In this document: positions 12,001 to 40,000 of the stretch, in pieces
How the letters are laid out: each line of letters opens with the position of its first letter
Position numbering within the stretch: position 1 is the first letter of the stretch
DNA from: an uncultured Planctomycetia bacterium
GTDB lineage: Bacteria > Omnitrophota > Gorgyraeia > Tantalellales > Tantalellaceae
NCBI GenBank assembly: GCA_964572255.1
Contig: CAZNEE010000003.1
Coordinates: 182,539 to 246,538, forward strand
Direction of reading: 5' to 3'
DNA length: 64,000 bases
Program-made: the position numbers and the translations under genes
Notes under the pieces: generated by a model
The model's database searches: none
What the model saw: only the letters and a program-made list of their open reading frames with translations
What the model was told of the DNA's origin: nothing

Positions 12001-15000
12001 ACCTTACCGAAACTCCGTCACCGCCGTAGTTATAGGTATGGTCTGATATTTCGTTGCCTTTACCGAGATGTATATCGAAGAAAGTCGAACTCTTGCGGTT
12101 AGTCTTATTCACTTCATCTATAAAGAGGATCGCGTCCGATCCGGTATGGCCTTCCGTGGTCTTATATGTATCCTGCTGTACCATAGCGTCTTCCGTTGAC
12201 GCCAGAGATGCCCTCAACGCGGTAGTATCTTTATAATAGAATATCCCTATACTTCTGACTGTCTCACCGTCATAACCGTAATTATAAGTATAATCGGCTA
12301 TTTCATCGCCTTTACCGAGGTGGATATCAAAGAATGTTGAATTCTTACGGTTAGAAAGTGCTACATTGAGAATTGAATCTGTCTTGTGGGTATCCTGCTG
12401 GATGAGCGCGTCTTCTATTTCGGCTTCGCTCGCCCTCTTCGCTCCTTGATAGAACATTATACCTACCGTTCTTACCGTAGTTCCGTCACCGGCATAAGTA
12501 TAGGTATAATCCACTATCTCATCGCCTTTACCGAAACGGTGATCAAAGAAGGTTGAACTCTTTCGGTTAGTATTAGCGATCTTTAAAATTGAATCTGTCT
12601 TGTGTGTATCCTGCTGGATAAGCGCATCCTCTGTGCTTGCAAGAGACGCTCTCTTGCCGTCCTGGTAGAACATCACACTTACGTTCCTTACCGTCGCGCC
12701 GTCGGAAGCATAGCTGTATGAATAATCAGCTATTTCATCGCCCTTACCGAAACGCGTGTTGAAGAATGTTGAGCTCTTCCGGTTGCTTTGGGCGACTTCC
12801 CATATTGAAGTGGCTATGTGAGTATCCTGTCTTATCAGGGCGCCTTCGGGGTCGGACAAGCTTGCCCGTTTTTCGCCTGTATAATAAAAAACGCTCACGG
12901 TCCTTACGGTCGAACCGTCATAACCGTAATTATATGAGTAGTCTGCCGTTTCTTCGCCTTTGCCGTGAGTCGTATCGAAGAAAGTCGAACTCTTTCGATT
13001 GGCATTTTCTACTAGATCAATAGACCCGGCTTTATGCGTGTCCTGGCGAACAAGGGCATCTTCCACGCTGGCGAGACTGGCTCTTACAGGATCTGGTTCT
13101 CCCTCATAATAGAATACTCCCACGGTCCTTACAAATTCTCCGTCACCGCCGTAGGAGTAATTATAATCTGCTATCTCATCGCCTTTCCCTAAATGAATAT
13201 CAAAGAAAGTCGAACTTCTGCGGGTTGTGGTGGTTACATTATAGATCGAATCTATCTTGTGGGTATCTTGCTGGACCATTGCGTCTTCAACATTGGCAAG
13301 ATCGGCTCTTACAGGATCTGTTTCTCCCTCATAATAAAAAACGGCAACTGTTCTCACGGTGGTCCCGTCACCGGCATAGTTGTAGCTATAATCCGCTATC
13401 TCGTCGCCTTTGCCGAGATGTGTGTCAAAGAATGTTGAACTCTTGCGGTTGGTATCAGCAATATTAAAAATAGAATCTATCTTGTGGGTGTCCTGCCGAA
13501 TAAGCGGATCATCCGCTTCCGCAAGGGTCGCTCTTTTGCCTCCATGGTAATAGAAAACACCCACTATTCTTACGGTCGTTCCGTCAAGCCCGTAGGTATA
13601 TGAATAGTCCGCTATTTCTTCGCCCTTGCCGAGCTGTGTAGCGAAGAAAGTTGTATTTTTGCGGTTGGTTTGGGCAATATCGTAGATTGAATCCGCTTTA
13701 TGAGTATCCTGCTGTTCCATAGCATCTTCAATAGCTGCCCCGCTTGCTCTATTCCCGCCCTCGTAATATAGAACCGCTACCGTTCTCACGGTCGTTCCGT
13801 CGCCTGCATAGTTATAACTGAAATCTGCGATCTCATCGCCTTTACCGAAACGCGTATTGAAAAAGGTTGAACTCTTGCGGTTTGCATATTTGATCTTATC
13901 GATCGCGGAAGTTTTATGAAGGTCTTGCCTTATCAGGGCGTCTTCCGTTTCCGCCTCGCTTGCTCTTATATCACCCTGGTAATAGAAAACACTCACTGTT
14001 CTTACAGTTATTCCGTCGCCGCCGTAACTGTATAGGTAGTCCGCGATCTCATTGCCTTTGCCATGATCTACATCAAAAAATGTTGAGGACCTGCGGGTAG
14101 TAAGGGTTACACTGTAAATTGAATTTGTCTTGTGCGTGTCCTGTCGGATCATCGCATCCTGCGAACTCGCTTCGCTGGCCCGCTTGAAAGCTTCATAATA
14201 GAAAACACCAACAGTCCTTACGGTTGTTCCATTGGAAGAATAATTATAGCTGTAATCCGCGATCTCATCGCCTTTGCCGAGATGTATATCAAAAAATGTT
14301 GAGTTTCTCCGGTTAGTTTCAGCAACTTTATAAATTGAATCTACTTTATGTGTATCCTGCTGTATGAGCTCATCTTCCGATTCAGCCAAAGTAGCTCTTT
14401 TACCTCCAACATAATAAAAAACTCCCACTGTCCTTACGGTCGTGCCGTCACTGCCATAAGAGTAACTGTAATCTGTTATTTCCTCGCCTTTTCCGTGTTG
14501 TACAGCAAAGAACGTGGAACTCTTCCGGTTGGTTTCGGCAATATCGTAGATCGACCCGGCTCTATGCGTATCCTGCTGTACCATCGCGTCTTCCGAACTT
14601 GCTTCGCTTGCCCTCTTGCCCCCCTGATAATAGAAAACACCAATTGTTCTCACGGTTGTTCCGTCAGAAGCGTAGGTATACGTGTAATCGGCCACCTCAT
14701 CTCCCTTGCCGAGATGTATGTCAAAGAATGTTGTATTGATACGGTTATCTAACGCAACATTGCCGATCGAATTCGTTTTATGGCTGTCTTGATAGATAAG
14801 GGCGTCTTCCGGTCCGGCTACGCTTGCCCGCTTATCTCCCTCGTAATACATAACGCCCACTGTCCTTACCGTTGTACCGTCTCCGGCATAACTATACGTG
14901 TAATCGGCTATTTCCGATCCTTTACCGAGATGCGTATTGAAGAAAGTCGAGCTCTTGCGGTTGGTATCGGCTATTTTTAAAATTGAATCCGTCTTATGTG

Positions 15001-18000
15001 TATCCTGCCGGATCAAAGCATCCTCTACGCTGGCCAGAGATGCCCTCTTTTCGCCCTGGTAATAGAAAACGCCTATTGATCTCACTGACACCCCGTCGCT
15101 GCCATAGGTGTAAGAGAAGTCCGCTATTTCGTCTCCCTTGCCGAGATGAATATCAAAGAAGGTCGAACTCTTGCGGTTGGTTTGGGCGACCTTGAAAATT
15201 GAATCTGTCTTGTGTGTATCCTGCTGGATCATCGCGTCTTCTACGCCTGCTTCGCTTGCCCTCTTGCCGCCCTGATAGAAGAAAATACCTACGTTTCTTA
15301 CTGTAGTTCCACCTCCCGCATAATTATAGCTATAGTCTACTATTTCTTCACCCTTGCCGAGATGTATATCAAAGAACATTGAGCTCTTGCGGTTGGTATC
15401 AGCTATTTTAAAAATTGAATCCGTCTTATGTGTATCCTGCTGTACTAATGCGTCTTCTGTCCCCGCTTCACTTGCCCTCTTTATGCCCTGATAATAGAAA
15501 ACACCCACACTTCTTACGGTCGTTCCGTCCAAGCTATAGGTGTAGGTATAATCCGCTATCTCGTCGCCTTTGCCATACGTCGTATCAAAGAAAGTTGAAC
15601 TTATACGGTTAGAAACGGCACCCTGAAAAATAGAATCTGTCTTGTGTGTATCCTGCCGGATCATCGCGTCTTCTGACTCCGCTACGCTTGCTCTCTTGTC
15701 TCCTTCATAATAGAACACTCCCACTGTCCTTACCGTTGTCCCGTCACCTGCATAGTTATAGCTGTAATCGGCTATTTCGTCGCCTTTCCCGAGATGTATA
15801 TCAAAAAAGGTTGAACTCTTGCGGTTAGTATCAGCGATCTTGTATATTGAATCCGCCTTATGTGTATCCTGCTGAACCATCGCGTCTTCCGATCCGGCAA
15901 GAGATGCCCTATTATCATCCTCGTAATAAAAGACATTAACCGTTCTTACGGTCGTACCGTTAGAAGCATAGGTATAGGAATAATCCGCTATTTCGCCGCC
16001 TTTGCCGTGAGTTATATCGAAGAAAGTCGAACTTCTTCGGTTCTCCTTGCTTGCCTCATTAATAAAGGAAATAGCATCCGATCCGGCATGACCTTCTGTA
16101 GCCTTATATGTGTCCTGCTGGATCATCGCGTCTTCCGTTCCGGCAAGAGATGCCCTATTCCCTCCCTCGTAATAGAAAATACCTACGTTTCTTACTGTAG
16201 TTCCATTGCCCGCATAATTATAGGTATAGTCTGCTATCTCTTCGCCTTTACCGTGATGTATATCAAAAAAGGTTGAACTCTTGCGGTTAGTATCAGCGAC
16301 CTGAAAAATAGAAGCTATCTTGTGGGTATCCTGCTGGATCATCGCGTCTTCTACGCCCGCTAAAGACGCTCTCTTTGCGCCCTGATAATATAGAACACTC
16401 ACGGTTCTTACTGTAGTACCGTCGCCGCCGTAATTATAGGTATAGTCCGCTATCTCATCGCCTTTTCCGAGATGTGTTTCAAAGAAGGTAGAACTCCTGC
16501 GGTTAGCCAAAGCTGCATTGCTGATCAGACCTGTTTTATGCGTATCCTGGCGGCTGAGAGCATCTTCCACTTCTGCCAGAGACGCTCGTTTATCCCCTTG
16601 ATAATAAAATACGCCTACTGTTCTTACGGTAGTTCCGTCGCCCGCATAATTATAAGTATAATCGGCAACTTCCTCGCCTTTACCTAAATGTATATCGAAA
16701 AAGGTCGAACTTACCCGGTTAGTATCGGCGACTTTGTAAATTGAATCTGTTTTATGGGTATCCTGTCGGATCATCGCATCTTCCGGTCTTGCCAAAGATG
16801 CCCTTCTTTCCCCTTCAAAGAAGAAGATGTTTACAGTCCTTACGGTTGTTCCGTCACCGCCGTAATTATAGGTATAATCTGTTATTTCTTCGCCTTTGCC
16901 GAGATGTATGTCAAAGAAAGTGGAGCTCTTGCGGTTGGCATCGGCTATTTTGAGGATAGAATCGGTTTTGTGCGTATCCTGGCGGATCATCGCGTCTTCC
17001 GATCCCGCAAGATTGGCTCTATTGTCTCCCTCGTAATATAAGACAAGAACATTTCTGACCGTTGTGCCGTCACCGGCATAGCTATAAGTATAATCCGCTA
17101 TTTCGTCACCTTTACCCAGGTGGATATCAAAGAAAGTGGAGCTTTTGCGGTTGGTATCGGCAATATTGTAGATCGAATCTGCTTTATGCGTATCCTGACG
17201 AACAAGAGCATCTTGCGAACCTACTTCGCTTGCCCTCTTTTCGCCTTCGTAATATAGAACAGATACCGTCCTGACCGTTGTTCCGTCACTTGCGTAACTG
17301 TAAGTATAATCCGCGACTTCGTCTCCCTTACCCAAATGGATCTCAAAGAAAGTGGAACTTTTGCGATTAGTTTTATTGACTTCATCTACATAATCGATCG
17401 CATCCTGATCCGTGTGATCTTTGTCTGCCGCATACGTATCCTGCTGGATCATCGCGTCTTCCGCTTCCGCAAGATCAGCTCTCTCGCCTCCCTCGTAATA
17501 CATTATTCCTATAGTCCTTACCGTGGTACCGTTAGACGCATAGCTATATGTATAATCCGCTATTTCTTCGCCTTTACCGAGATGAGGATCAAAAAATGTA
17601 GAGTTTACCCTATTATCCAGCGCTATTGTTCCTATTGAATCTGTCCTGTGCATATCCTGACGAACAAGGGCATCTTCATGCTCCGCCAAACTTGCTCTTA
17701 CATCTCCCTGATAATAAAAAACTCCCACAGTTTTTACAGTTGTTCCGTTGGAAGTGTAATTGTAGATGTAATCCGCTATTTCTTCGCCTTTACCGAGATG
17801 TATATCAAAGAAGGTTGAACTTGTACGGTTATCTAAAGCGACATTCGAAATTGAATCCGTTTTATGGGTATCCTGCTGGATCATTGCGTCTTCCGAACTG
17901 GCTTCGCTTGCCTTCACATTGCCCTGGTAGAAGAAAATACCGACCGTTCTTACGCTTGTTCCGTCGGACGCATAGCCATAGTTATAATTTGCGATCTCAT

Positions 18001-21000
18001 CGCCTTTGCCGAGATGTATATCAAAAAAGGTTGAACTTGTGCGGTTCTCATCCTTTACATTGTCGATCGAATCCGTCCTATGTGAATCCTGCTGGATGAG
18101 GGCGTCTGTTACTTCCGCTAAACTTGCTCTTACATCATCCTGATAATAGAAAACCCCCACTGTTCTTACAACCGTACCGGTACTGTCATAATTGTAAGTG
18201 TAATCCGCGACTTCATCTCCCTTGCCGAGATGTACATCAAAGAAAGTCGAACTTCTGCGGTTATCTAAAGCGACTTTTGAAATTGAATCTGTTTTATGAG
18301 TATCCTGCTGTACCATCGCGTCTTCCACTTTTGCAAGAGACGCTCTTACATCCCCCTCATAATACATAACACCAACAGTTCTCACTGTAATGCCATCACT
18401 TGCATAATTATAGGTATAATCCGCTACTTCCTCACCCTTGCCGTGATGTATATCAAAGAATGTTGAGTTTGTTCGATTGGCATCTTCTACTGCACTGATC
18501 GAGGTAATGTTATGAGTATCTTGTCTGATCAAAGCATCATCTGTTCCTGCCAGAGATGCCCTATTGTTACCTTCATAATACATAACACTTACTGTTCTTA
18601 CGGTCGTTCCGTCACCTGCATAATTATAGGTATAGTCGACTATCTCGTCTCCCTTGCCGTGATGGATATCAAAGAAAGTGGAATTTTTACGATTGGTATC
18701 CGCAATTTCGTAAATCGAATCTGCTTTGTGGGTGTCCTGCTGGACCATCGCGTCTTCCAAGCCCGCTTCACTCGCCCTTACACCGCCCTGATAGTAGAAA
18801 ATACCTACCGATCTTACGGTCGTTCCGTCATTCGCGTAGGTATAAGTATAGTCTGATATCTCATCGCCCTTACCGAGATGTATATCAAAGAAGGTCGAAC
18901 TCTTTCGGTTTTCCTCGGCAATACTGTTAATTGAGTCCGTCTTATGCGTATCCTGCTGGATCATCGCGTCTTCCGCTACCGCAAGAGACGCTCTTACATT
19001 CCCTTCATATAAGAAAACGCCCACGGTTCTTACTGTTGTGCCGTTAGATGCGTAACTATAGGAGTAATCTGCTACCTCATCGCCTTTACCGAGATGAATA
19101 TCATAATATGTTGAACTTCTGCGGTTATCTAAAGCGACATTGCCGATCGAATCTGTTTTATGGCTATCCTGGCGTATCATCGCGTCAGCAGCTCTTGCAA
19201 CGCTTGCTCTTCTTTCCCCTTCATAATAGAAAACACCTACTGATTTCACATTTACACCGTCAGAATAACTATAGGTATAATCCGCTATTTCCTCGCCTTT
19301 CCCGAGATGTATGTCAAAGAAAGTCGACGCCTTACGGTTTGAATTGTTTACGTCTCCAATAGTGTCTGCCTTGTGTGTATCCTGCTGAATAAGCGCATCG
19401 TCCGCTCCTGCAAGATCCGCTCTATTCCCTCCCTCGTAATAGAAAACCCCTATTGACCTTACTACTGTTCCGCCCGCTCCATAAGTATAGGTATAATCCG
19501 TTATTTCATCGCCCTTACCAAGATGAGTGTCAAAGAAAGTCGAACTTACGCGGTTATCATTCTCTACTAAGTCGATTGATATGGTTCTGTGGGTATCCTG
19601 CTGGACCAATGGATCATCCACTCCGGCCAGGCTTGCCCTTACGCCTCCATCGTAGAAGAAAACACCTACGGTTCTTACGGTCGTCCCATTAGAAGCATAG
19701 CTATAAACATAATCCGCTATTTCATCGCCTTTACCTAAATGTATATCAAAGTATGTAGAACTTTTCCTGTCTTCAAAAGTCGTGTCGTCAACTTCATCTA
19801 TAGACGATTTCCGGTAGCTATCCTGACGGACCATTTCATCGTTCGTACTGGCCAGACTTGCCCTTATCTCGCCGTTATAATAGAACACGTTCACTGTTCT
19901 TACATCCGTTCCATTACCCGCATAGTTATAAGAATAATCCGCTATTTCCTCGCCCTTGCCGTTATGAATATCGAAAAAGGTGGAGGATCTTCTTGTTTCA
20001 ATGTCATCTAACGCATTCTGCAGTGAATCCGCCCTGTGTGTATCCTGCTGGATCATCGCATCTGCCAGAAAAGCTGCACTTGCCCTTTTGTCCCCTTCAT
20101 AATAGAAAATCCCGACGCTTGTAACGGTCGTGCCGTTAGAAGCGTAACTATACGTATAATCAGAAACTTCCGAACCCTTCCCTAAATGTGTATCAAAACG
20201 TGTCGTGGATATTCTCGTATCGATATTATTGACAGCTTCAGTTATTGATGCGGCATCATGTGAATCCTGTTTAGATAGCGGGAAATAACTTTCAGAAACG
20301 GAAGCCCGGTCGTCATTATCCCCGTAATAAAGGATGTTCACGGTTTTTACCGTCACGCCGTCCGGTTTATAGCTGTAGGTAAAATCCCCGATCTCTTCAC
20401 CCTTGCCGAGATGGATATCAAAAAAGGTGGACGATTTTCTTGTAGTAATATCGGCCAACGCGGATGCCAGTGAATCTGTTCTATGAGAATCCTGCTGGAT
20501 CATCGCATCTTCCGGAGTTGCATCTACGGCCCGCTTATCACCTTCGTAATAATATATACTCACGTTCTTGACCACAGTCCCGGTTTTATCATAATTGTAA
20601 GTATAATCCAGGACCTCTTCACCTTTTAGCCTTGTCGCAAAATCGAAAAATGAAACACTGTCGAGCTGGCTTACATGCGCATCGATCACGCCGTCAGGTT
20701 CGGTATCCGGGTTTAGCGGATCGATCTGGCCTCGATACGTTACCTGTCTGCTCATGCGGTCACCCGTATCGGAACCGGCTGCTCTTTGAAGGCCGGCTTC
20801 GTATAAATACACTACCGTTCTCGAAACCTCCTGGTCGGCATTATATCTTTCGGTATAGTCGTTAATTTCCTCGCCCTTGATCCTTCCTTCATAATGCATG
20901 TAATTCATGCTTGAGAGCTGTTCTTCCGCGCCGACCAAGATGCCTCTTGCGTCCGTAGCGGCCTGGATATCGGCAATTTCTCCGGAATAAACTACATTGA

Positions 21001-23524: not shown

Positions 23525-23912
23525 TTCACACCTACTAGCTTCCAGCACTTATTTATATCAAAGTTAAATACTTTTATTAATACTTTATAAAAAACTTAAA
23601 TAACATGCATAAAAAAAAGAGATTTCCACATCTCTCCCCTTTTTCCTGATACAGTATAATTATATCATATATATAGGTGAAATGCCTAAGAAAAAAATGC
23701 TAACTTTTTTTTACCTTACAAGACAGAGCTTAATAAGTATCCTTTTCCGGGATTATGAGTTATAAGTCCTTAAAAATGAAGAATTTAAGCAGCTAAATGT
23801 ACCTTTTTGTTGTTTTGCTTTTGCAATGAAAATTATTATCTTTCTCTAATACAGCTCGATCGTACCATAATATTTCTTGTTCTTCCGATAAACTTTAGCT
23901 ATACTTTATGCG
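23525..23912. promoter_or_regulatory. AT-rich divergent intergenic region between gene A (minus) and the glycosyltransferase gene (plus). It probably holds both promoters.
   Basis: 388 bp, very AT-rich, non-coding in all frames. On the minus strand an extended -10-like TGATATAAA (complement of 23551-23560) lies ~27 nt upstream of the gene A ATG. TATAAT-like motifs occur on the plus strand (for example cagTATAATtat near 23653-23658). A short AT-rich hairpin AGAGAT-ttccac-ATCTCT at 23618-23635 is followed by a T8 run on the minus strand. Confidence 0.35.
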
Positions 23913-25976
23913 ATGAAAAAAGACAATAAAACAATATTACTGCTTAGTATTTTACTTGTGATGATCGGATTCGGTGTTTACGCAAACTCGCTTCCCAATC
24001 AATTTGTTTGGGACGATATACACCTTATCAAGAACAATCAAGATATAAAAAGCATCTCTTTGGCAAATCTTAAAACGATATTCACTCATGACATAATGTA
24101 CTTCCTCGAACGCAGTAATTTCTACCGCCCTCTTCAATCCCTCTCGTACATGCTTGATTATAAACTTTGGGGAGAAAACGCTTACGGCTTCCGTCTCATC
24201 AATATACTGATCCATTGCATAAATAGCATTATTATTTTCCTGCTTCTATATCGTCTCTGGCGTAACATGGCTGCTTGCTTTTTAAGCTCACTCTTTTTTC
24301 TGGTGCATCCTTTAAATGTTTCCGCAGTTTCCTACATTGCCGGAAGAGCTGATCTACTGGCCCTCATGTTTTTATTGCTTTCAACAGTATTTCTTTTTAG
24401 ATTCAAAGGATCGGAAACGTTTTTTAATGGCGCGGTCAGCATCCTTTTTTTTATTTTCTCTCTACTTTTAAAAGAGATATGCATTATTTTCCCTGTTTTT
24501 ATTTTTGTTTTTCTATATTTTTCAAAAGAAAATTCCAAAAATTTTACGAAAAATGAGAAATTGTTTATTTCTGTATATCTTTTAATTACAGTAACTTATG
24601 TAATTTTAAGGTTGACTTTATTGAAGTTTACATCCCTGTCCGCTCAGGCCATAAATGCTCCGGATCTTTATTCGCGTCTTTTATCCGCCGCTCCATTTAT
24701 CATTACATATTTGAGACTCATCATACTACCATATGATCTCAGGATGGACAGAGATTTTCAAATACCGACAACAATAATGGACTGGCGCGTGATCGGTGCG
24801 GTGCTCTTGCTTGCCGGAATTATTTATTTTTTCATAACATACGTCAAAAAAGAAAAAACTATCGCTTTGGGAGCAGCCTGGTTCTTTGTATTGCTTTTCC
24901 CTTCGTTGAATATAATCATTCCTTTGAACGCGCCTGTATCAGAGCATTGGCTGTACATACCGTTCTTCGGGATAACGGTGATCCTGGCGTACTTGATCTC
25001 TTTAGTATTCAGGAAAGTACAACTGCCAAAAAACCTTATCTATCTTGGCTTTACATTGATACTTTCGGTTTATGCCGGAACAACGGTACACCTCAATAGG
25101 CAATGGCGAAACGCAGAAACGCTTTTTTCCTACATCACAAAATTCCAACAGGTCCACTGGCGTTCCTACTACAATCTCGGCAGACAGTATTATGAAAACG
25201 GTAAATATCAAGAAGCTATAGAAGAGCTCCAAAAAGCTATTGATGCTAATCCGGAATATTATGAAGCCCTTGTATATATGTTTCTGTCATATGCGAATAT
25301 CGGAGATATCGATCAGGCATCTGAATATTTTACCAAAGCCATAAAAGTAAAACCCAAATCCAGCATAACCTATACCATTTTCGCGCAAGCACTTAAAAAA
25401 GCAAAAAAATCAGATGATGCCGCTAAGATGTACGAAACAGCTATCCGGCTGGATGAAAAAAATATCGATGCCTATAATGCCCTGGGAATAATTTATGCGG
25501 AAAAAGGCCAATATGAAAAGGCCGAAGATATATGGAGCAAGGCCTCTAAAATAGATCCTGATTCTAAAGAAATAAATGCGAATTTAGAAAGACTTTCCAA
25601 AGTAAAAAGTGCACTTCTGACCGAACATATCAAAAAAGGAGATAAATATGCATCCGAGGGTAAATACATTTCGGCGATAAAAGAATATGAAAAGGCCCTG
25701 GAAATTGATGATAAAAATACTTCGATCCATAACAATTTAGGAGTTTTATACGGACTGACCGGAAAAGATGATGCGGCAATAGCTGAATTCGAAAAAGTCA
25801 TTGATATAAATCCAAATAACGCAGGCAGTTACAAGAACATTGCCATAATATATGCCAAATACCCCGAAAAACATGATAAAGCAATAAAATACCTCCGGCT
25901 GTATCTTGAGTTTCCCCTTCCGGATACCGAGCGAAAAAAAGTTGAAGAATCTATAGAAAAGCTGAGAGAGCAATAA
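23913..25976 (+). CDS. GT-C fold glycosyltransferase, protein O-mannosyltransferase-like (PMT_2 / TMTC type), with C-terminal TPR repeats.
   Basis: The ORF encodes 687 aa. The N-terminal ~400 aa are polytopic, with about 10 hydrophobic helices. The first-loop motif VWDDIHLIKNN and YRPLQSLSYMLDYKLWG are typical of PMT_2/TMTC-type O-mannosyltransferases. The C-terminal ~260 aa (about 25150-25976) contain at least 5 TPR-like 34-aa repeats, for example YYNLGRQYYENGKYQEAIEELQKAIDANPEY, AYNALGIIYAEKGQYEKAEDIWSKASKIDPD and IHNNLGVLYGLTGKDDAAIAEFEKVIDINPNN. Confidence 0.75.
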   Translation: MKKDNKTILLLSILLVMIGFGVYANSLPNQFVWDDIHLIKNNQDIKSISLANLKTIFTHDIMYFLERSNFYRPLQSLSYMLDYKLWGENAYGFRLINILIHCINSIIIFLLLYRLWRNMAACFLSSLFFLVHPLNVSAVSYIAGRADLLALMFLLLSTVFLFRFKGSETFFNGAVSILFFIFSLLLKEICIIFPVFIFVFLYFSKENSKNFTKNEKLFISVYLLITVTYVILRLTLLKFTSLSAQAINAPDLYSRLLSAAPFIITYLRLIILPYDLRMDRDFQIPTTIMDWRVIGAVLLLAGIIYFFITYVKKEKTIALGAAWFFVLLFPSLNIIIPLNAPVSEHWLYIPFFGITVILAYLISLVFRKVQLPKNLIYLGFTLILSVYAGTTVHLNRQWRNAETLFSYITKFQQVHWRSYYNLGRQYYENGKYQEAIEELQKAIDANPEYYEALVYMFLSYANIGDIDQASEYFTKAIKVKPKSSITYTIFAQALKKAKKSDDAAKMYETAIRLDEKNIDAYNALGIIYAEKGQYEKAEDIWSKASKIDPDSKEINANLERLSKVKSALLTEHIKKGDKYASEGKYISAIKEYEKALEIDDKNTSIHNNLGVLYGLTGKDDAAIAEFEKVIDINPNNAGSYKNIAIIYAKYPEKHDKAIKYLRLYLEFPLPDTERKKVEESIEKLREQ

Positions 25977-26078
25977 CCTCTTCTTAACAATAACTTCTTC
26001 TTTTAAAAAACCAAAATAAATGCAATTAGCTGTCTAGCTTTTTATTGCCTTAATTAGAAAAAAGTTCTATTATTTTTC

Positions 26079-26107: not shown

Positions 26108-26200
26108 ATAGCTAGTTAAAGAACAAAAAGTGTTCTCTCATATAAAATATCAATATATTTAATATTGTTCATTATTAATATAAAAACGAAAGAGAGTAAT

Positions 26201-29200
26201 ATGAATACGTCGAAAAAAGTCCACCCTATCATCAAGACGATCTCCACAATATTAATAATCACTTTTATTAACCTTAATATCTCCTGGGCATATCCTGCTG
26301 ACCCGGCCGTAAGAAGTACAGTTGCTACTCCCCGGATATTCCAATTGCCTCAATATCTATCCTCCGAATTTCAAAGGGATCAGTTGGAAGCTTTCAGGGA
26401 TATAAAATTACTTTCTTCGGTTTTTAACATAACAAAATACCTGTTGGAAGTCCCGGATAAGGATGCGCGAAAGAAACGTTTGAATTCTCTTGAGACTTTA
26501 ATGCGTAAAGAATTGGGGGACTTCACTCAAAATATAGACCTTGAGCATGTTCACATCACGGGGATCGATATATCCATTGACCTTTTCAGTGACGGGACCG
26601 TCATCATCCCCTATACCAAGGATAATAAAAAATATATCATCGCGGTATCAGAGAAAAGCGCTATTCCCGAAAAATACGTGCGGGAGTATCCTTTAACGAT
26701 CGCTGAAAATTACATAGCTATACTATTGCCTGAAGATTATGAAGAGATCATGGCTTATCGAAAATCCGCCCTCCCCGCCCAAAAGAAAGAAGAAATACAG
26801 GCAAGCATATCCGAGCAAATTACTAACGTCACTATTGATACTATCGAAGTGGAAAACAATGACACTGTCATAAAAAGTAAAAGTGCAATAAATATAAGAA
26901 CTTACATCAAAGCTCTTTCACTTCTGTTATTCCTTTTTCTTGCATGCTTCCAACTCGCCTGCGGGAAAAAAGCGGACAAAACGCCCGGGCAGGAAAAAGA
27001 ATCCAGGGAGATCACCGAAACCGAAACCCCCGAACCGCAAGAAGAAGTCAAGCCCGAATCACCGGAAGAAAAGATCCGCAAGCTGATTAAACTGCTTCCT
27101 CATGACGGAAAAGAAATAGAAATAAGCCAAGGCGCCACTATGCAGATAAATTCTGTTGAAAGCCTGATAAAAATAGGAAAACCCGCCGTACCGTTTTTAA
27201 TAGAAGCTTACAAGGAAGAGGCTGATCTTGAAACGCGTATAAAAATAATTTCAGTTTTAAGGCAAATACATGACGAGAAAAGCATACCTGTATTTATAAA
27301 AGCCTCTAAAGACAATAACGCCCGTATCCGTGAAGAAGCCGTGGGAGCTTTGTGTAAATTTCCAAAAGATGAAAGAGTGCTTCCTGCCCTTACAGAAGCA
27401 CTGAAAGATCCTGAAAAAAATGTGCGTTCACGCGCTTTAGATGCGCTGGTTGAGACCGGCGATAAAACAGCCGCCCCGGCCATTATGGAACTGTTGAAGG
27501 ATGAAAATCCCTTCATTCGTGAAAACGCAGTGACGGCTCTGGAAAAACTCGGCGTCAAAGAAGCCCTGCCGGCACTTATTGAAGCTTCGCGAACCGACAA
27601 AGACAAGGATGTCAGAAAAGCCATAGTGTCATTTTTGGAAAAACTCGGCACCAAAGAAGCCTTAGCGGTTTTAATTGAGCTTTCTGAAATCGATAAAGAC
27701 TCCTCTGTACGTAAGGCCGCTAAAGGAGCTTTGGAAGAATTTGATAAAGACGTTATCTTTCTCGGTTTTGTTGAAGCGCTGAAAAATGAAAGCTATTATG
27801 TCCGGCGCCCTGCCGTTCGATCACTGGGTGAAATGAAAGATAAAAAAGCCGTACCGGCTCTTATGGAAGTACTACTTAAGGACAGTGATGATGCTATCCG
27901 CAGAGAGGCCGCATGGTCTCTTGGCAATATCGGCGATAAAAAAGCTGTTCCGGCGCTTATCGAAACGCTTAAAGATACGGAACATGATGTACGTTCAGGC
28001 GCCGCAAAAGCTCTGGGTGAACTTAAAGCTCAAGAGGCAGTCCCGGCTCTTATTGAAGCTTTGAAAGATAAAAATAAAAGCTTGCGTTCAAACGCAGCCG
28101 AAGCTTTGGGTAAAATTGGCAATAAAGATGCTATTTCTGCTTTAATTGAAATTGCCCTTAAAGATGAATACGATATTGCGCGTAATTTTGCTACATATGC
28201 ATTGGGTAAAATTGGCATTAAAGATGCCCTCCCGGGCCTTACGCAGGCTTTACTTAAAGATAAAGACCGATTTATACGCGAAAAAACCGCAAAGGTTTTG
28301 GGTGAGATCGGAGATGAAAGCGCGCTCTCTGCTCTTACAGAAGCTTCAAAAGACGAAAGTTGGGATGTACGTGAAGCAGCTAAAAAAGCTATTGAAGAAA
28401 TAAAACAAAGGGCGAAAGCAAAAAAAGACCAGGCTCAAAAGAACATCCTGCCCCTCCACCCGTTGTCATTGGTCCTGGGTGTATCGATCGCCGCTAATCT
28501 TGCGCCCGGAACAGGAATTTTATCATCCATATACCCTTTTATTGCCATAGGAGCGATCTTGGCGACCAGCATGTGGGTGGTATCAACAATAAAACCAAAA
28601 ATCAAACCCGAACTTACAGGCGCTAAAAAAGACCAAACCGCAATAAGGCCTGTCCGCGCTATTATCTCACTCCTGCTGTTATTGGCCCTTGTAGTCTCCA
28701 CGGCTTCTTGTAAAAAAGCGGATAAGGACACTGCAGCCAAAGATGAGCCTGTTAAAGTCGTTCAATTATCACAGGCTGAAGTTGAAAAAATGGAAAAAGC
28801 CATTCAGGACTTAAAAAGCGAAACCTGGGAAACCCGGGAAGCTGCAATTGTAGTTCTGAGTGAAATAGCCTCTGAAAAAGCTATCCCCGCTCTTATTGAA
28901 GCGGTAAAGAAAGAAGAGTCACCGGGACGAAAACGAGATTATCTTAAAGTTTTAATAAAAACGGGCAAACCTTCACTCCAGCCTCTCATTAAAGTCCTGC
29001 GAAATAAAGATGAAAACGCCTGGACGCGTAAATATGTAATTAAAGCTTTAGGTGAAATGGGGTATGAAGAAGCAATACCGGAACTTATTAAAGCACTGAA
29101 AGGCACTAATTCAAATGTAAAGGGAGATGAGGCAACTTATGAAAGACATTCAGCCAGAGATGCTTTAATAAAAATAGGAAAACCCGCTATCCCAGCTTTA

Positions 29201-30829
29201 ATGACTGTTTTAGACCATGAAAATAAATATGTCCGCTCTAATGCCACCGATGCCTTGATCGGAATAGGAGGAAAAGAAGCTGTCCCGGGACTTATAAAAA
29301 TGCTAAAGGATGAAGTTGACTTTATACGCACCGATGCAGTTGTTGCTTTGGGCAATATAGGGGATAAAAGTGCCGTCGATGGCCTTATCGAAACACTTGA
29401 AGATGAAGATTATGACATCCGAATGAAAGCTGCGGAAGCTCTTGGTAAAATCGGAGATGAAAGAGCCGTTCCTGCACTTACTAAAGCAAAAAGAGATTTT
29501 GAAAAACCAGTACGTGACGCTGCTAAAGAGGCATTAAAGAAAATAGAAAATAGATCCGAGCCTGAGGTAAAAACAAAACAGAGCAATATCTTGCCCCTTC
29601 ATCCTTTGAGCATGGTATTAACTCTCCCTGTGGCAAATTTGCTTTTTCCGGGACAAAATATTTTAACCTTTATATATCCCCTACTCGCCATAGGAACGAT
29701 CTTAACGACCGGCATGTGGGTAGTATCCGCAATAAGATCAAAGCCGGAGAAGTCTGAATTAAAAGATACTGAAAAAGCGTCGCAAACCGCAGAAGAAAGG
29801 TCCCCGGCAAAAGATCAGCCTGTGCGAACTCAAAACTTAGATCAAAAATCTCTTATCGCGTCCGGGTTTGATGTTTCCGGAATATTTGAATCGGTAGAGG
29901 CTTCGGTAAATAACACCAGAACGGAATTGGTGAATTCAGGAGAAATCCTACTGGATTTTTTAACTGAAAGAACGGATATTTTGACTGAAGACATATTCGT
30001 CTCGCCTGAAATGAACAGGGACAATTTAACTCCCCTCTTAAAAGCCCAATTGGAACTCTTATTAAAGAAGATGGACCAGCTTCAAGAATTATCCGCTGAT
30101 GGTAATATCGAAGCTGTAGAATTTCCCGATTCGATTGATCTTGCGGAAAGAACGATCAGAGCAAATATAAACAATCTTGGGGCGAACAGTGTGATCTCAA
30201 ACTTAATAGTGCTTGCCAGGCGCGCGAAAAGAGATGATCAAAACCTTATAATAGGCCTTGATACCAGCTGGATACCAGCATACAAAAAGGGCAAGCTGCA
30301 GCATAATGCCATAAACCCTCTCATAAACGTGGTTAAATCTTTGGGAGACACGCTCAAGAGTATAGGGATAGATAACGTAACTATAATTTCGGGCGAAGGT
30401 TCCGACCTGGCGAATAAACTGATCGCGGAAAAAGATGAGACATCCAATAAACTTTCAAATATTATAGCTCTTGCATCAGCTGATACTATAAATTCCAACA
30501 GCTTTACGCCGCTTCGAAGCACACAGACTGACAAAAGAGCGTTCCTTGCCGCTGTTGACCCGACAGAACTCAATGAATTTTACGAAAAACACAAGGAATC
30601 CTTGAACAAGCAGATTAGTATAAAGATCATTGAGATGCTGTCAATAGCAATGGAATTGGCATCAAAAAGCGATCACTCCGTTGCCCTTCCCAGGATCGTC
30701 GGGACCATTGAACTTGATTACAACGAATCGCTGAGAATGGTAATATTTCTGCCTAAAGCGGGCCCTCACAAATACAAAGATATCCAAGATAAATACAAAA
30801 ATGAACGAACCGCTCTTCTTTCCATGTAA
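26201..30829 (+). CDS. Large HEAT-repeat (PBS-lyase HEAT_2-like) membrane or lipoprotein-like protein with an internal duplication.
   Basis: The ORF track starts at the TTG at 26165. I prefer the ATG at 26201 (MNTSKKVHP...), which is preceded by the purine-rich GAAAGAGAG. The protein has an N-terminal hydrophobic signal, IIKTISTILIITFINLNISWA. There are two arrays of canonical ~31-aa HEAT_2 repeats, for example D.VR..AA.ALG.IGDKKAVPALIE.LKD. A conserved TM hairpin follows each array: NILPLHPLSLVLGVSIAANL...SMWVVSTIKPK and SNILPLHPLSMVLTLPVANL...GMWVVSAIRSKPEKS. Two internal hydrophobic segments end in lipobox-like Cys-KKADK: LLLFLFLACFQLACGKKADK and LLLLLALVVSTASCKKADKD. Confidence 0.8.
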   Translation: MNTSKKVHPIIKTISTILIITFINLNISWAYPADPAVRSTVATPRIFQLPQYLSSEFQRDQLEAFRDIKLLSSVFNITKYLLEVPDKDARKKRLNSLETLMRKELGDFTQNIDLEHVHITGIDISIDLFSDGTVIIPYTKDNKKYIIAVSEKSAIPEKYVREYPLTIAENYIAILLPEDYEEIMAYRKSALPAQKKEEIQASISEQITNVTIDTIEVENNDTVIKSKSAINIRTYIKALSLLLFLFLACFQLACGKKADKTPGQEKESREITETETPEPQEEVKPESPEEKIRKLIKLLPHDGKEIEISQGATMQINSVESLIKIGKPAVPFLIEAYKEEADLETRIKIISVLRQIHDEKSIPVFIKASKDNNARIREEAVGALCKFPKDERVLPALTEALKDPEKNVRSRALDALVETGDKTAAPAIMELLKDENPFIRENAVTALEKLGVKEALPALIEASRTDKDKDVRKAIVSFLEKLGTKEALAVLIELSEIDKDSSVRKAAKGALEEFDKDVIFLGFVEALKNESYYVRRPAVRSLGEMKDKKAVPALMEVLLKDSDDAIRREAAWSLGNIGDKKAVPALIETLKDTEHDVRSGAAKALGELKAQEAVPALIEALKDKNKSLRSNAAEALGKIGNKDAISALIEIALKDEYDIARNFATYALGKIGIKDALPGLTQALLKDKDRFIREKTAKVLGEIGDESALSALTEASKDESWDVREAAKKAIEEIKQRAKAKKDQAQKNILPLHPLSLVLGVSIAANLAPGTGILSSIYPFIAIGAILATSMWVVSTIKPKIKPELTGAKKDQTAIRPVRAIISLLLLLALVVSTASCKKADKDTAAKDEPVKVVQLSQAEVEKMEKAIQDLKSETWETREAAIVVLSEIASEKAIPALIEAVKKEESPGRKRDYLKVLIKTGKPSLQPLIKVLRNKDENAWTRKYVIKALGEMGYEEAIPELIKALKGTNSNVKGDEATYERHSARDALIKIGKPAIPALMTVLDHENKYVRSNATDALIGIGGKEAVPGLIKMLKDEVDFIRTDAVVALGNIGDKSAVDGLIETLEDEDYDIRMKAAEALGKIGDERAVPALTKAKRDFEKPVRDAAKEALKKIENRSEPEVKTKQSNILPLHPLSMVLTLPVANLLFPGQNILTFIYPLLAIGTILTTGMWVVSAIRSKPEKSELKDTEKASQTAEERSPAKDQPVRTQNLDQKSLIASGFDVSGIFESVEASVNNTRTELVNSGEILLDFLTERTDILTEDIFVSPEMNRDNLTPLLKAQLELLLKKMDQLQELSADGNIEAVEFPDSIDLAERTIRANINNLGANSVISNLIVLARRAKRDDQNLIIGLDTSWIPAYKKGKLQHNAINPLINVVKSLGDTLKSIGIDNVTIISGEGSDLANKLIAEKDETSNKLSNIIALASADTINSNSFTPLRSTQTDKRAFLAAVDPTELNEFYEKHKESLNKQISIKIIEMLSIAMELASKSDHSVALPRIVGTIELDYNESLRMVIFLPKAGPHKYKDIQDKYKNERTALLSM
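27050..29530 (+). repeat. Two arrays of HEAT_2 / PBS-lyase-type repeats (protein-level) within the 26201..30829 gene.
   Basis: Array 1 spans about 27050-28400 with more than 12 repeats, for example VRREAAWSLGNIGDKKAVPALIETLKDTEHD, VRSGAAKALGELKAQEAVPALIEALKDKNKS and LRSNAAEALGKIGNKDAISALIEIALKDEYD. Array 2 spans about 28790-29530, for example VRSNATDALIGIGGKEAVPGLIKMLKDEVDF and IRTDAVVALGNIGDKSAVDGLIETLEDEDYD. Confidence 0.7.
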
Positions 30830-30854: not shown

Positions 30855-30887
30855 ATAAAAAACCAGGCTGCTCAAAAGAGCAGCCTG
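30855..30887 (-). terminator. Rho-independent terminator for giant gene D. It may also act in the other direction.
   Basis: A perfect 11-bp GC-rich stem, CCAGGCTGCTC (30862-30872) / GAGCAGCCTGG (30877-30887), with a 4-nt loop AAAA. On the minus strand the stem is followed by U6 (complement of the A-run 30855-30860). It lies 133 nt downstream of the gene D stop (31020) and 26 nt downstream of the 26201..30829 stop. Confidence 0.55.
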
Positions 30888-30895
30888 GTCCGTAT

Positions 30896-37000: not shown

Positions 37001-40000
37001 ATCCTCTGATAGCAGCACCCATTCTCTGGAAGATGTTAAGCCCCTTGACTTTCTCTTTCTGACCAAATATATCAACTGCCTGCATTCCTTCAAATCTCTC
37101 CGCTCTTCTAATAGCTTCTTCTTCTGATTTTTCAGTTGCCGCTTTTGCAAGTTCCGCTATCTCCGCATCTATGCTGCTAAGCAGCTCTTGTGCTTCTACA
37201 TTGTCTCTCTGGATCTCCTGTGCCTGCAGGACAAACCCTCTTGCCAATTCCAGGTCTTGTGACCTCATCTCTTGAGCTTTTTGTAATAGATCTTTAACTT
37301 CGGCCATATTCTCTTCATGCTGCTTGATCTGATACTGCACAAACTGGTTAAGGTTAAGTTCATTTATTCCCTGGAGTTCTCTGCCTTCAATAACAAGCAC
37401 TTCATTGACAATATTCGCACTTGCCTGCTCAAAGAAACCCTGCGCCTCTTTTATCTTATCGGATGAACTATCAAGGCTCTCGTAGAACTGCCCTTTAGCA
37501 TCAGCGCTTATCTCTTCTATCATGCGCTGCGTGAAGTAGCCCGTTAATATTTTTCCGAGGGCGACCTTTATCTCGTCAACTGTATTTTTCCTTATAACAG
37601 ATTCTATATTAGAAAGCTTGAGCTCTATTCCAAAGGTATCCTTTATGTCCCGTAAAATGCTCTGGAAGCCTGCACTTGTTACCTCTTCGGACATATACTT
37701 ATCAACCATCTGGCTTACTCTATGATCTAAGTACTCAGGTGTCCCGAGATCATAGCTTATACCGCTTCTTGAATCTATAAGACTTATGAGCCTGTTAGCA
37801 AGCTCAAATATAATGGTCTCTTCCCTGGCCTGATGCCTTATGCTTCTTACCTGCATATTAACTATGTTCTTTTGCGCCTGGGTAAATGCGGTCTTAAGTA
37901 CGTTCTTATCAGCTTCTGAAAGTTTTTCTCCTCTTTCAAGCATTTCCTGCGCCTGTTTGAGCAGATCTCCTCCCTTCAGGAACCCTCTCTTGAGGAATTC
38001 CATTTGCGCCTCAAGACATATCAAGTTAGTTGTGATACCGATTACGCCCTGACGTCCTGACCTTCCTCTGACCTGATCATCAACTCTTACTGAATCATAA
38101 AATCCCATGCTGACCTGCTGGAGACCCCATTCTCTGGCAGCCTTGGAAACTTTAATATCCGTTCCTCTTCCGCTAATAGGTGTTGATATGGTTATCATCC
38201 CTCCTAAGCCGGCCCTATCAACAATTACATCTTCTTCGCTTTCGTTCGAGGCATCAAGCATCTGAAAATACGGAACGCCTTTCTTCTCGTCAGTTCCTCT
38301 CATCTCAGTTTCAATGAGTTCCAAAGATTCTTTCGGTGAAAGTTTTTGTCCGTCAATTTCTCTCTTCGCAGTCGCAAGTAACTGAGCAAAATTTTCTTTT
38401 TGAAGTATTCCTTTAACTCTTAGAGCATCATTCACGCCAAGTGTATGGATAACTAAAGGCTTGCCTTCCCTCACAGCGTCATGAACAAGTTGCAATAGAA
38501 AAGCTGTTCTTTCAGCTTCCGTTAAGAAGTATTGCTCAGGCATATCCTCTCTGCGCATAATACTGTGCCTTGCAACCTTAAATATATTCATTCCATACAG
38601 CTCTCTCATCATACCCATCTCTGCCATGCTGGAAGCAATAGTTCCTGTCATACCTGATACATCGCCAAAAAGTGATATAAGGTCTTTTGCGGTTATCCTT
38701 GAAGTGGTCCTGCTCTTGCTTCTTATGCTTAAATCTTCTTTTGCTTCTATAAGCTGATGTAACTCACCCTGCAGTCTCTGGCCTGTTTGCGTTCTTCCGG
38801 TATCTTTACCTATAAGAAGTATCTGGTTTTCACGTTTAACATAATCACGGCCTTCAACATATGTATGCTGGGCTTGCAGGGCCTGTCTTACATAGTTAGT
38901 CCATTCCTCTCTAGCTTCTTTGTCCCATTTTTCTTTTGCTTCTTGTAAAACCTGATCAAGAACATCTCTATCCAATTCCTGTTTAGAGTAATTTCTTAGA
39001 CTGTTAAGCCCGCTAACCACAGCCTTCTGAAGCTTTTTCCTGCCTGCTTCAGTGAAACCAACCTCCTTGGTAACTTCGTTATACCAAGCATCATATTCGC
39101 CTTCTCTGTCTATTGCCTCGACAATATCTCCTGTTCGTTTCACACTAGAAGCATCTATCTCTGTCTCTTTACCTGTAAGTCTCATTGCGAACATGTTAAG
39201 ACTTGCAACATTAAAGTTCTCAAGAACTGCCCTTGCAGCACCTCTTAATCTGATCTGGTCATACATGTTCAGCGGTCCCGTGCGTCCTGACATGATAAAC
39301 TGTGTCTTAGCCTGGTCTATCAATAAGCTATCGACTTCATCAAGACAAGCGGACATTTTCTTAAGATGGTCGTAGTATCCCTCGCCCTGGAATATATATC
39401 GTTCACTTCTTCTTATGTCAGGCGTGTCTCTATCATGAAGAACATCAAATGCCCAAGTATCTATTGCTACATACGTAACATCTTTAGCATAGGCGGCTCT
39501 TCTTGCCTGATCCCTTTCTGCCTGAGTTGCTCCTTCCATATCGCGCTGCACAAGACCGACCTCTAAACCAAGTAAGTCCTGCAGAATAGGTACTGCTTCT
39601 TTTTCATAAGCCACTCTGGCGTAATAATCAGCCTGAACCGCAACTAATGATCCTGTACCTTCTATACCCTTTAGATATGCCCTTAAGACACCGACTATAG
39701 TTTTACCTTCACCTGTAGCAAGTTCCGCGATCCATCTTGAATTTCTTCTTGAGACTACAAGTGCCGCTTTTATTTGTTCGACATGCGGCGTGTATCCATT
39801 TTGTGCTAGTATAGCCATTGATGCGACAGCCAGCATTTCTCGCTTCATCCCGCGAGTAATGCGATCACGCTTACTCTTAAATTCTTTCGTTTTTTCCTTA
39901 CCTACTTCTTCGACTATTTCTTTTAACTTATCTTGAAGATTTGTGCCTACACTCACAGCTAGTAAAAGCTTTACTTCTTCGCTTGCCAAAGCCCTGATAT

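Follow-up and report, generated by a model that had tools for sequence, protein, structure and literature searches.

Does a membrane glycosyltransferase encoded beside a giant repeat protein serve that protein, or does the enzyme have other business in the cell envelope? The question is raised by a 64,000-nucleotide stretch of DNA from an uncultured bacterium of the Omnitrophota (assembly GCA_964572255.1, contig CAZNEE010000003.1, positions 182,539 to 246,538), hereafter the window, in which a gene for a glycosyltransferase of the C fold class (GT-C) carrying tetratricopeptide repeats (TPRs) stands divergently to the first of two giant genes. An earlier note on this DNA had proposed a glycosylation partnership, with the TPR arm recognising the modules of the giant protein and the GT-C domain glycosylating them. 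The answer that we consider likely is that the gene encodes an active-looking TMTC/PMT-like enzyme of the GT-C_A type, one of many paralogues in Omnitrophota, whose unconserved adjacency to a giant gene is most likely incidental. Judged from structural models and from analogy with characterised enzymes, the protein itself is probably a periplasmic protein O-glycosyltransferase. Coordinates given without a locus label are positions in the window, and ORF stands for open reading frame. The argument turns on the following features.

23913-25976, plus strand: GT-C/TPR ORF with an ATG start, intact, 687 amino acids (aa), from the ORF list and its translation.
23913-25103, plus strand: membrane domain of GT-C_A type covering aa 1-397, 11 transmembrane (TM) helices (PMT_2, AlphaFold2, Foldseek).
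24012-24017, plus strand: D34-D35 within FVWDD in the first periplasmic loop, invariant in homologue alignments.
25113-25970, plus strand: periplasmic TPR arm, aa ~401-686 (Pfam TPR matches, AlphaFold2 helix pattern).
2-23548, minus strand: giant ORF A, a stop-free frame of >7,849 aa whose C-terminus lies past the left window edge.
23549-23912, no strand assigned: AT-rich intergenic stretch from which giant A and the GT-C gene diverge (sequence reading).

The fold of the enzyme was approached through modelling. The full-length AlphaFold2 model, built with a 63-sequence alignment, reaches a mean predicted local distance difference test (pLDDT) score of 95.4 and places eleven membrane helices, with which a hydropathy scan agrees, ahead of about 7 TPRs. 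When this model was compared with the PDB in Foldseek, TPR proteins swamped the result and left the catalytic domain uninformative; the N-domain was therefore re-modelled alone as aa 1-412 (pLDDT 91.2). Its matches at probability 1.0 are PglB, Pmt4, ArnT, EmbB, DPY19, STT3 and AftA only, and matches outside the GT-C class begin only at E>0.6. The best TM-score, 0.58, belongs to Chaetomium Pmt4, and no family stands out among the GT-C_A matches. As modelled, the N-domain is a GT-C_A fold with an acidic pair in its first outer loop.

Sequence profiles were consulted for a narrower assignment. With the Pfam family PMT_2, the full protein reaches 25.8 bits, just under the gathering cut-off of 26.1, and the N-domain by itself reaches 27.2 bits (E 5e-6, aa 83-227); the family is also matched by 7 of 23 relatives. 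The Pfam families TPR_1/2/8/11/16/17/19 match over aa ~395-680 with E-values of 1e-22 to 1e-34, and the arm is modelled as about 7 repeats in two blocks bridged by a long helix (aa 552-581), for which the PDB structure matches are OGT, SPY and consensus TPRs. The TMTC_DUF1736 profile (PF08409), which describes the TM7-TM8 loop of TMTCs, finds no match in the window protein at E<=10, and the Pfam profiles PMT (PF02366) and MIR find none either. Searches with the N-domain returned nothing relevant and no GT-C family from NCBIfam, and zero matches among PDB chains by sequence search and by profile search. The Pfam and NCBIfam profiles for ArnT, for Wzy_C/O-antigen ligase and for other non-protein GT-C enzymes likewise miss the N-domain, so that these profiles give no assignment to another GT-C family with a known unrelated substrate. 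Several names met along the way were set aside: those that NCBIfam gives to the full protein (PilW, MamA, PrsT and others) are TPR-driven partial matches far below cut-off, and the JGI homologue names 'PilF' and 'TadD' are the same TPR artefact. The JGI label on one family member, P0018, is 'protein O-mannosyl-transferase'.

Conservation within the family bears on whether the enzyme is active. D34-D35 is invariant in 63 homologues and in 23 aligned N-domains, and the set of invariant or near-invariant positions comprises D34, D35, Y71, R72, P73, H101, H132, P133, G144, R145, D147, E188, P273, L276, E344, H345, Y348 and W398. In the AlphaFold2 model the conserved residues map to the outward-facing loops EL1 (aa 27-89), EL2 (~132-141), EL3 (~185-188), EL4 (236-290) and EL5 (333-350); the longest of these, at ~55-60 aa, are helical. 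A pseudo-enzyme that would act as a TPR scaffold only was ruled out because the window protein keeps all of the family-invariant residues intact. From the alignments, D34-D35 is presumed to be the catalytic or acceptor-binding acidic pair, and its position corresponds to motif M1 of the TMTC enzymes and to D55/E56 of ArnT (PMC7801869). The motifs printed for TMTCs, which were themselves modelled on ArnT, are M1 DD, M2 SHKSYRP, M3 an Asp before TM4, M4 KE(T/Q)xxT after TM5 and M7 ERxxY (PMC7801869). Matching the window protein by eye against that list makes these five recognisable.

M1 (DD): D34-D35 in the window protein, by eye.
M2 (SHKSYRP): SNFYRP in EL1 of the window protein, by eye.
M3 (Asp before TM4): GRAD in the window protein, by eye.
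M4 (KE after TM5): K187-E188, within S-K-E, in the window protein, by eye.
M7 (ERxxY): EHWLY, within A-E-H-W-L-Y, in EL5 of the window protein, with Arg replaced by His, by eye.

The PMT_2/TMTC architecture that the earlier note had read into the protein holds as regards the GT-C_A fold, the 11 TM helices, the DD loop and the TPR arm, with five TMTC motifs recognisable by eye, and fails as regards DUF1736; at the level of profiles, PMT_2 is weak to borderline, TPR very strong and DUF1736 unmatched. Its descriptive statements were accurate: the gene coordinates are exact, VWDDIHLI lies at aa 32-39, the enzyme and giant genes are indeed divergent, with 365-389 bp between their starts, and the peptides NRKSSTFF and DGTTVRTVG both come from the 72-aa module of giant A described below.

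Concerning the reaction, we infer a lipid-linked donor, a protein acceptor and an O-linkage. The modelled fold, together with the conserved equivalents of phosphate and metal ligands (K187/E188 and E344/H345), points to a polyprenyl-phosphate sugar as the probable donor. A protein acceptor is favoured over a lipid or glycan mainly because the characterised GT-Cs with a C-terminal TPR arm, namely TMTC1-4, TMEM260 and TfpW, all act on proteins. The enzyme would sit in the inner membrane with a cytoplasmic N-terminus, its eleven TM helices setting the DD loop and the other conserved loops in the periplasm; this outward-facing topology was adopted because the DD loop must face outside. The polyprenyl-phosphate sugar would be bound in a groove formed by EL1, EL3, EL4 and EL5, D34/D35 would position or activate the acceptor hydroxyl, and the periplasmic TPR superhelix would select or hold the protein acceptor for O-glycosylation.

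Whether that acceptor could be the neighbouring giant was addressed through synteny. Genomic contexts were retrieved for seven relatives from the enzyme's own clade (45-53% identity), and they are as follows.

P0003: between EF-Tu and a PM0630-family gene.
P0009 (48% identical), L007:8872-12124: next after ftsA, closing a complete dcw cluster.
P0004: ahead of dinB, a methylase gene and addAB.
P0006: ahead of the same genes as P0004.
P0015: divergent to a 1,071-aa ORF without a Pfam match.
P0007, L094:2158-14384: in a sugar-modification/methylation cluster.
P0014: between a GGDEF gene and recJ.

Not one of these seven relatives, in six different contexts, adjoins a giant ORF. The scan was extended to 85 other loci (L004-L088), in which stop-to-stop ORFs were collected within 10 kb of the GT-C gene; full 10-kb flanks on both sides were available in ~27 of them. 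No ORF exceeding 2,135 aa was found within that distance in any of the 85. At two loci (L021 and L056), ORFs of >1,000 aa run past the locus end, 6-7 kb from the GT-C gene. Among related loci, the larger neighbours bear no relation to giant A, giant B or the HEAT-repeat protein of the window. The same result was obtained from the side of the giant. Five homologues were found for the first 592 aa of giant A. The closest with genomic context, P0123 (46-48% identity), is the start of a truncated gene preceded upstream by two RND pumps and no GT-C gene, and P0124 and P0125 (31% identity to the giant A N-terminus) are shorter proteins without a GT-C neighbour. Because synteny, the check that the earlier note itself had suggested, is conserved from neither side, the proposed pairing is not supported, and the varied, housekeeping-like contexts of the clade suggest a general envelope role over a locus-specific one.

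The size of the family fits into the same account. A word-indexed search with the N-domain gave 346 matches, and those carrying organism names are nearly all from Candidatus Omnitrophota. Apart from the identical protein, the nearest relatives (P0002-P0015) are only 45-53% identical. An exhaustive hidden Markov model search over 1.84 billion cluster representatives returned 136,376 representatives at E<=1e-3 and 62,987 at E<=1e-30, and a scan of one genome per species yielded at least 597 stretches, several metagenome-assembled genomes (MAGs) having 3-4 separate loci. Clustering of the ORFs at 84 loci revealed frequent tandem duplication. The family is very large and is heavily expanded and paralogous in Candidatus Omnitrophota. 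One 21.6-kb locus holds eight consecutive TPR-GT-C paralogues (L040:4501-20937), and further tandem arrays occur in Omnitrophota MAGs at L066, L035, L021, L057, L084 and L030; such arrays imply a large, diversified periplasmic glycosylation repertoire. In a neighbour-joining tree, the window protein groups with P0002, P0003, P0004, P0006, P0009, P0012 and P0015.

Several points weigh against the account given so far. Metagenome contigs tend to break within repetitive giant genes, and the lack of giants on short contigs is therefore weaker evidence. No relative at 53-100% identity turned up in the databases searched, a gap that leaves a slender chance for a pairing specific to this lineage. The PMT_2 match is borderline, the TMTC-specific DUF1736 profile misses the window protein and hits just 1 of 23 relatives, short of significance (E 0.063), and TMTC motif M7 has a His here in place of its phosphate-binding Arg. 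The fold search is blind to the difference between protein-acting and lipid- or glycan-acting GT-Cs, and the function of the bacterial clade is predicted from sequence and models.

Among the alternatives, one concerns the acceptor rather than the neighbourhood: the enzyme might modify lipid A, a lipoglycan, a peptidoglycan-linked polymer or an exopolysaccharide, with the TPR arm acting as a scaffold for envelope machinery. ArnT, EmbB and AftA are matched in fold with E-values similar to those of the protein-acting enzymes, and two own-clade contexts have an envelope character, P0009 closing the dcw cell-wall cluster and P0007 lying among a rhamnosyltransferase and sugar methyltransferases. Near the paralogues, genes for GT2, GT4 and TPR-less PMT-like enzymes recur, at 6 loci each. 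Against these stand the protein acceptors of TMTC1-4, TMEM260 and TfpW, a motif set closer to TMTC than to ArnT or Emb, and the failure of the ArnT and O-antigen-ligase profiles on the N-domain, and we regard a non-protein acceptor as improbable. As to the two contexts themselves, P0009 occupies the usual ftsZ slot and is followed by the usual downstream genes, a YggS-like gene, proC and yggT. The P0007 cluster comprises TylF- and CmcI-type methyltransferases, a radical SAM/SPASM protein, the rhamnosyltransferase and a second TPR protein, a set that hints at a pathway for methylated deoxyhexose glycans in the genome concerned.

The partnership with giant A requires a closer look at the giant itself. 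Its start candidates are GTG at 23548 and ATG at 23524, at 365-389 bp from the divergent GT-C gene start, and its N-terminus consists of a basic stretch followed by a single hydrophobic helix at aa ~52-70, resembling a signal anchor. The 7,849 visible aa contain no Pfam domain and no SecA module. The frame carries an array of one repeat.

7949-20431, minus strand: array of the 72-aa module in giant A, at least 53 copies with 75% mean column identity.
Module consensus in giant A: NRKSSTFFDIHLGKGDEIADYTYxYAxDGTTVRTVGVFYYxGxKRASLAxxEDALIQQDTHKTDSI.

Twelve positions of the module are invariant, including the motifs G-K-G-x-E and Q-D-x-H, and S6, T7 and S66 are near-invariant among its Ser/Thr residues. 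The module profile matches nothing in the PDB or Pfam, and against 5.8 billion proteins it found only five small fragments; one of them is on a contig (L093) from the interior of a giant gene, which offers no neighbour context. An RHS/YD-repeat identity for giant A, suspected from its D-, T-, G-, S- and Y-rich composition, was dropped for want of profile support.

Were the enzyme a dedicated partner, its TPR arm would bind these modules and its GT-C domain would O-glycosylate their Ser/Thr residues in the periplasm. Such an arrangement is consistent with the short divergent interval, with a signal anchor that would place the bulk of giant A in the compartment of the DD loop and TPR arm, and with the conserved Ser/Thr of the modules; pilA-tfpW provides a precedent for a GT-C-TPR gene beside its substrate gene. 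The four-gene order of the window is also seen on three metagenome contigs, though the GT-C protein is identical in all three. These points are set against the absence of a giant neighbour in all seven own-clade relatives and all 85 other loci, and against the RND pumps, with no GT-C, beside the closest homologue of the giant A N-terminus. Moreover, ~136,000 cluster representatives of the enzyme family face 5 module fragments; the family being far commoner than the module, the clade clearly has other acceptors. We therefore hold a dedicated partnership to be highly improbable. Confined to this lineage, the recruitment of a TMTC-like enzyme to O-glycosylate the 72-aa modules of giant A, and perhaps giant B too, is a long shot as well; if true, it would be a bacterial parallel to the TMTC-cadherin system and the first case of glycosylation linked to a giant protein of the Omnitrophota. 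The least credible alternative, a pilin or pseudopilin glycosyltransferase like TfpW serving type IV pili or type II secretion system (T2SS)-like machinery, draws on a shared build (11 TM helices, DDX motif and periplasmic TPRs), on the pilus-linked paralogues set out further below and on T2SS-like genes reported near giant genes by West-Roberts et al., and is very improbable in view of a window that holds no pilin or pilus-assembly gene, an own clade that is separate in the tree and own-clade contexts with pilins in none of seven.

With an incidental adjacency as the preferred reading, the remainder of the window can be described in its own right. The window consists of four ORFs, namely giant A, the GT-C gene, a HEAT-repeat gene and giant B; the last two were absent from the earlier note's account of the locus.

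26165-30829, plus strand: HEAT-repeat membrane protein gene, 1,554 aa (HEAT_2, E 6e-125).
30860-30891, no strand assigned: GC-rich, terminator-like 14-bp hairpin where the HEAT gene and giant B converge.
31020-63842, minus strand: giant ORF B, 10,940 aa when counted from the first GTG, its frame open to the right window edge.
38142-39941, minus strand: SecA-like module in giant B (SecA_DEAD at E 1.7e-39, SecA_PP_bind, P-loop_SecA).

The HEAT gene lies on the same strand as the GT-C gene, 188 bp downstream, and giant B converges on it. A hydropathy scan of the HEAT protein places hydrophobic segments at aa ~19, 241, 761, 782, 825 and 1166, that is, a signal-anchor-like N-terminus and about five further segments. 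HEAT repeats have been reported as the most frequent domain of the 'Archaeovorin' giants, and the 1,554-aa protein may be a free-standing relative of such giant-protein modules. Several hydrophobic segments accompany the SecA-like module of giant B, and Pfam matches nothing else in its 10,940 aa. The hairpin has a perfect 14-bp stem with A/T runs on both sides and is probably a bidirectional terminator. Promoter-like sites in the 364-bp divergent region are as frequent as in shuffled sequence and carry no evidential value. The GC fraction is 0.37 across the GT-C gene (24001-26000) and 0.42-0.48 in the flanking giants; the low value may reflect the Phe/Ile/Leu-rich membrane domain rather than a foreign origin.

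Among the neighbours of paralogues, type IV pilin genes recur. At 16 of 84 loci a GT-C paralogue is part of, or close to, a cluster of type IV pilus or T2SS-like genes (PilB/C/M/N/O/Q). At no fewer than six loci (L039, L043, L046, L059, L062 and L067) it follows one or two co-oriented pilin genes at a distance of 7-320 bp. These pilin genes encode an N-terminal methylation motif, with PilB, PilC, PilM, PilN, PilO and a secretin encoded nearby, and the Pfam domains N_methyl, PilM_2, PilN, PilO, Secretin, T2SSF and T2SSE were confirmed at the pilin-linked loci, whose spans are listed here.

L062:9020-19272, pilin-linked span.
L059:482-13942, pilin-linked span.
L067:9406-19111, pilin-linked span.
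L043:15-13172, pilin-linked span.
L039:970-20413, pilin-linked span.
L046:270-13332, pilin-linked span.

On the strength of this arrangement and its analogy with TfpW, the pilin-linked paralogues are candidate pilin glycosyltransferases; in the neighbour-joining tree they occupy several deep branches, apart from the clade of the window protein.

Omnitrophota are tiny, putatively predatory bacteria. Within this phylum, the GT-C gene of the window encodes yet another TMTC/PMT-like enzyme of a very common bacterial kind, and has little significance by itself. The more promising leads are the expansion of the paralogues, in large and often tandem sets, and their linkage to pilins. Together, these point to protein O-glycosylation in the periplasm as a major trait of the Omnitrophota cell surface that has so far gone undescribed, and the loci combining pilin and GT-C genes provide concrete candidate enzyme-substrate pairs.

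Comparison with known systems places the locus more precisely. The earlier note had also drawn an analogy with the accessory Sec system, which proved weak: serine-rich adhesins of that system receive their glycans in the cytoplasm from GT-B enzymes rather than from GT-Cs of the PMT type. As regards the giants, giant B resembles the 'Archaeovorins' in combining a divergent SecA-like module with multiple TM segments (West-Roberts et al. 2023, bioRxiv 10.1101/2023.11.21.568195), whereas giant A differs from them in lacking both a Pfam domain and a SecA module in its visible 7,849 aa. A GT-C/TPR enzyme is not named among the conserved neighbours of giant genes in that work, nor in a 2026 complete-genome survey; the former reports T2SS-like genes close to the giant ones.

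As regards the enzyme, ArnT, EmbABC and AftA belong to the same fold class and have catalytic loop positions equivalent to those of the window protein, but they lack a TPR arm, act on non-protein acceptors and show no profile-level match to it. PMT/POMT enzymes (GT39, including actinobacterial Pmt) have the GT-C_A fold in common with it, alongside a weak PMT_2 match; the window protein differs in having no MIR beta-trefoil, DD instead of DE, and a TPR arm instead. The eukaryotic TMTC1-4 (CAZy GT105), which are cadherin and protocadherin O-mannosyltransferases, have the same 11-TM build with a TPR arm on the outer face. In comparison with them, the window protein shows L-[HR]-M-x-R where EL4 of the TMTCs has its 'DW' motif, the TPR arm is shorter at about 7 repeats, and the bacterial donor would be an undecaprenyl-phosphate or other polyprenyl-phosphate sugar, not dolichyl-phosphate mannose. 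TfpW of P. aeruginosa, a 646-aa GT-C with 11 predicted TM helices, a DDX motif and a periplasmic TPR region, is a pilin D-arabinofuranosyl transferase needed for pilin glycosylation on Ser/Thr (bioRxiv 10.1101/2020.04.19.049825). By description, it shares with the window protein the 11 TM helices, the DDX motif, the periplasmic TPRs and a similar size. TfpW is encoded directly downstream of the major pilin gene, pilA, whereas the GT-C gene of the window has no pilin neighbour and belongs to another clade than the pilin-linked paralogues; it is among those paralogues, at six or more loci, that the order of a pilin gene followed by a GT-C gene reproduces the pilA-tfpW arrangement of P. aeruginosa.

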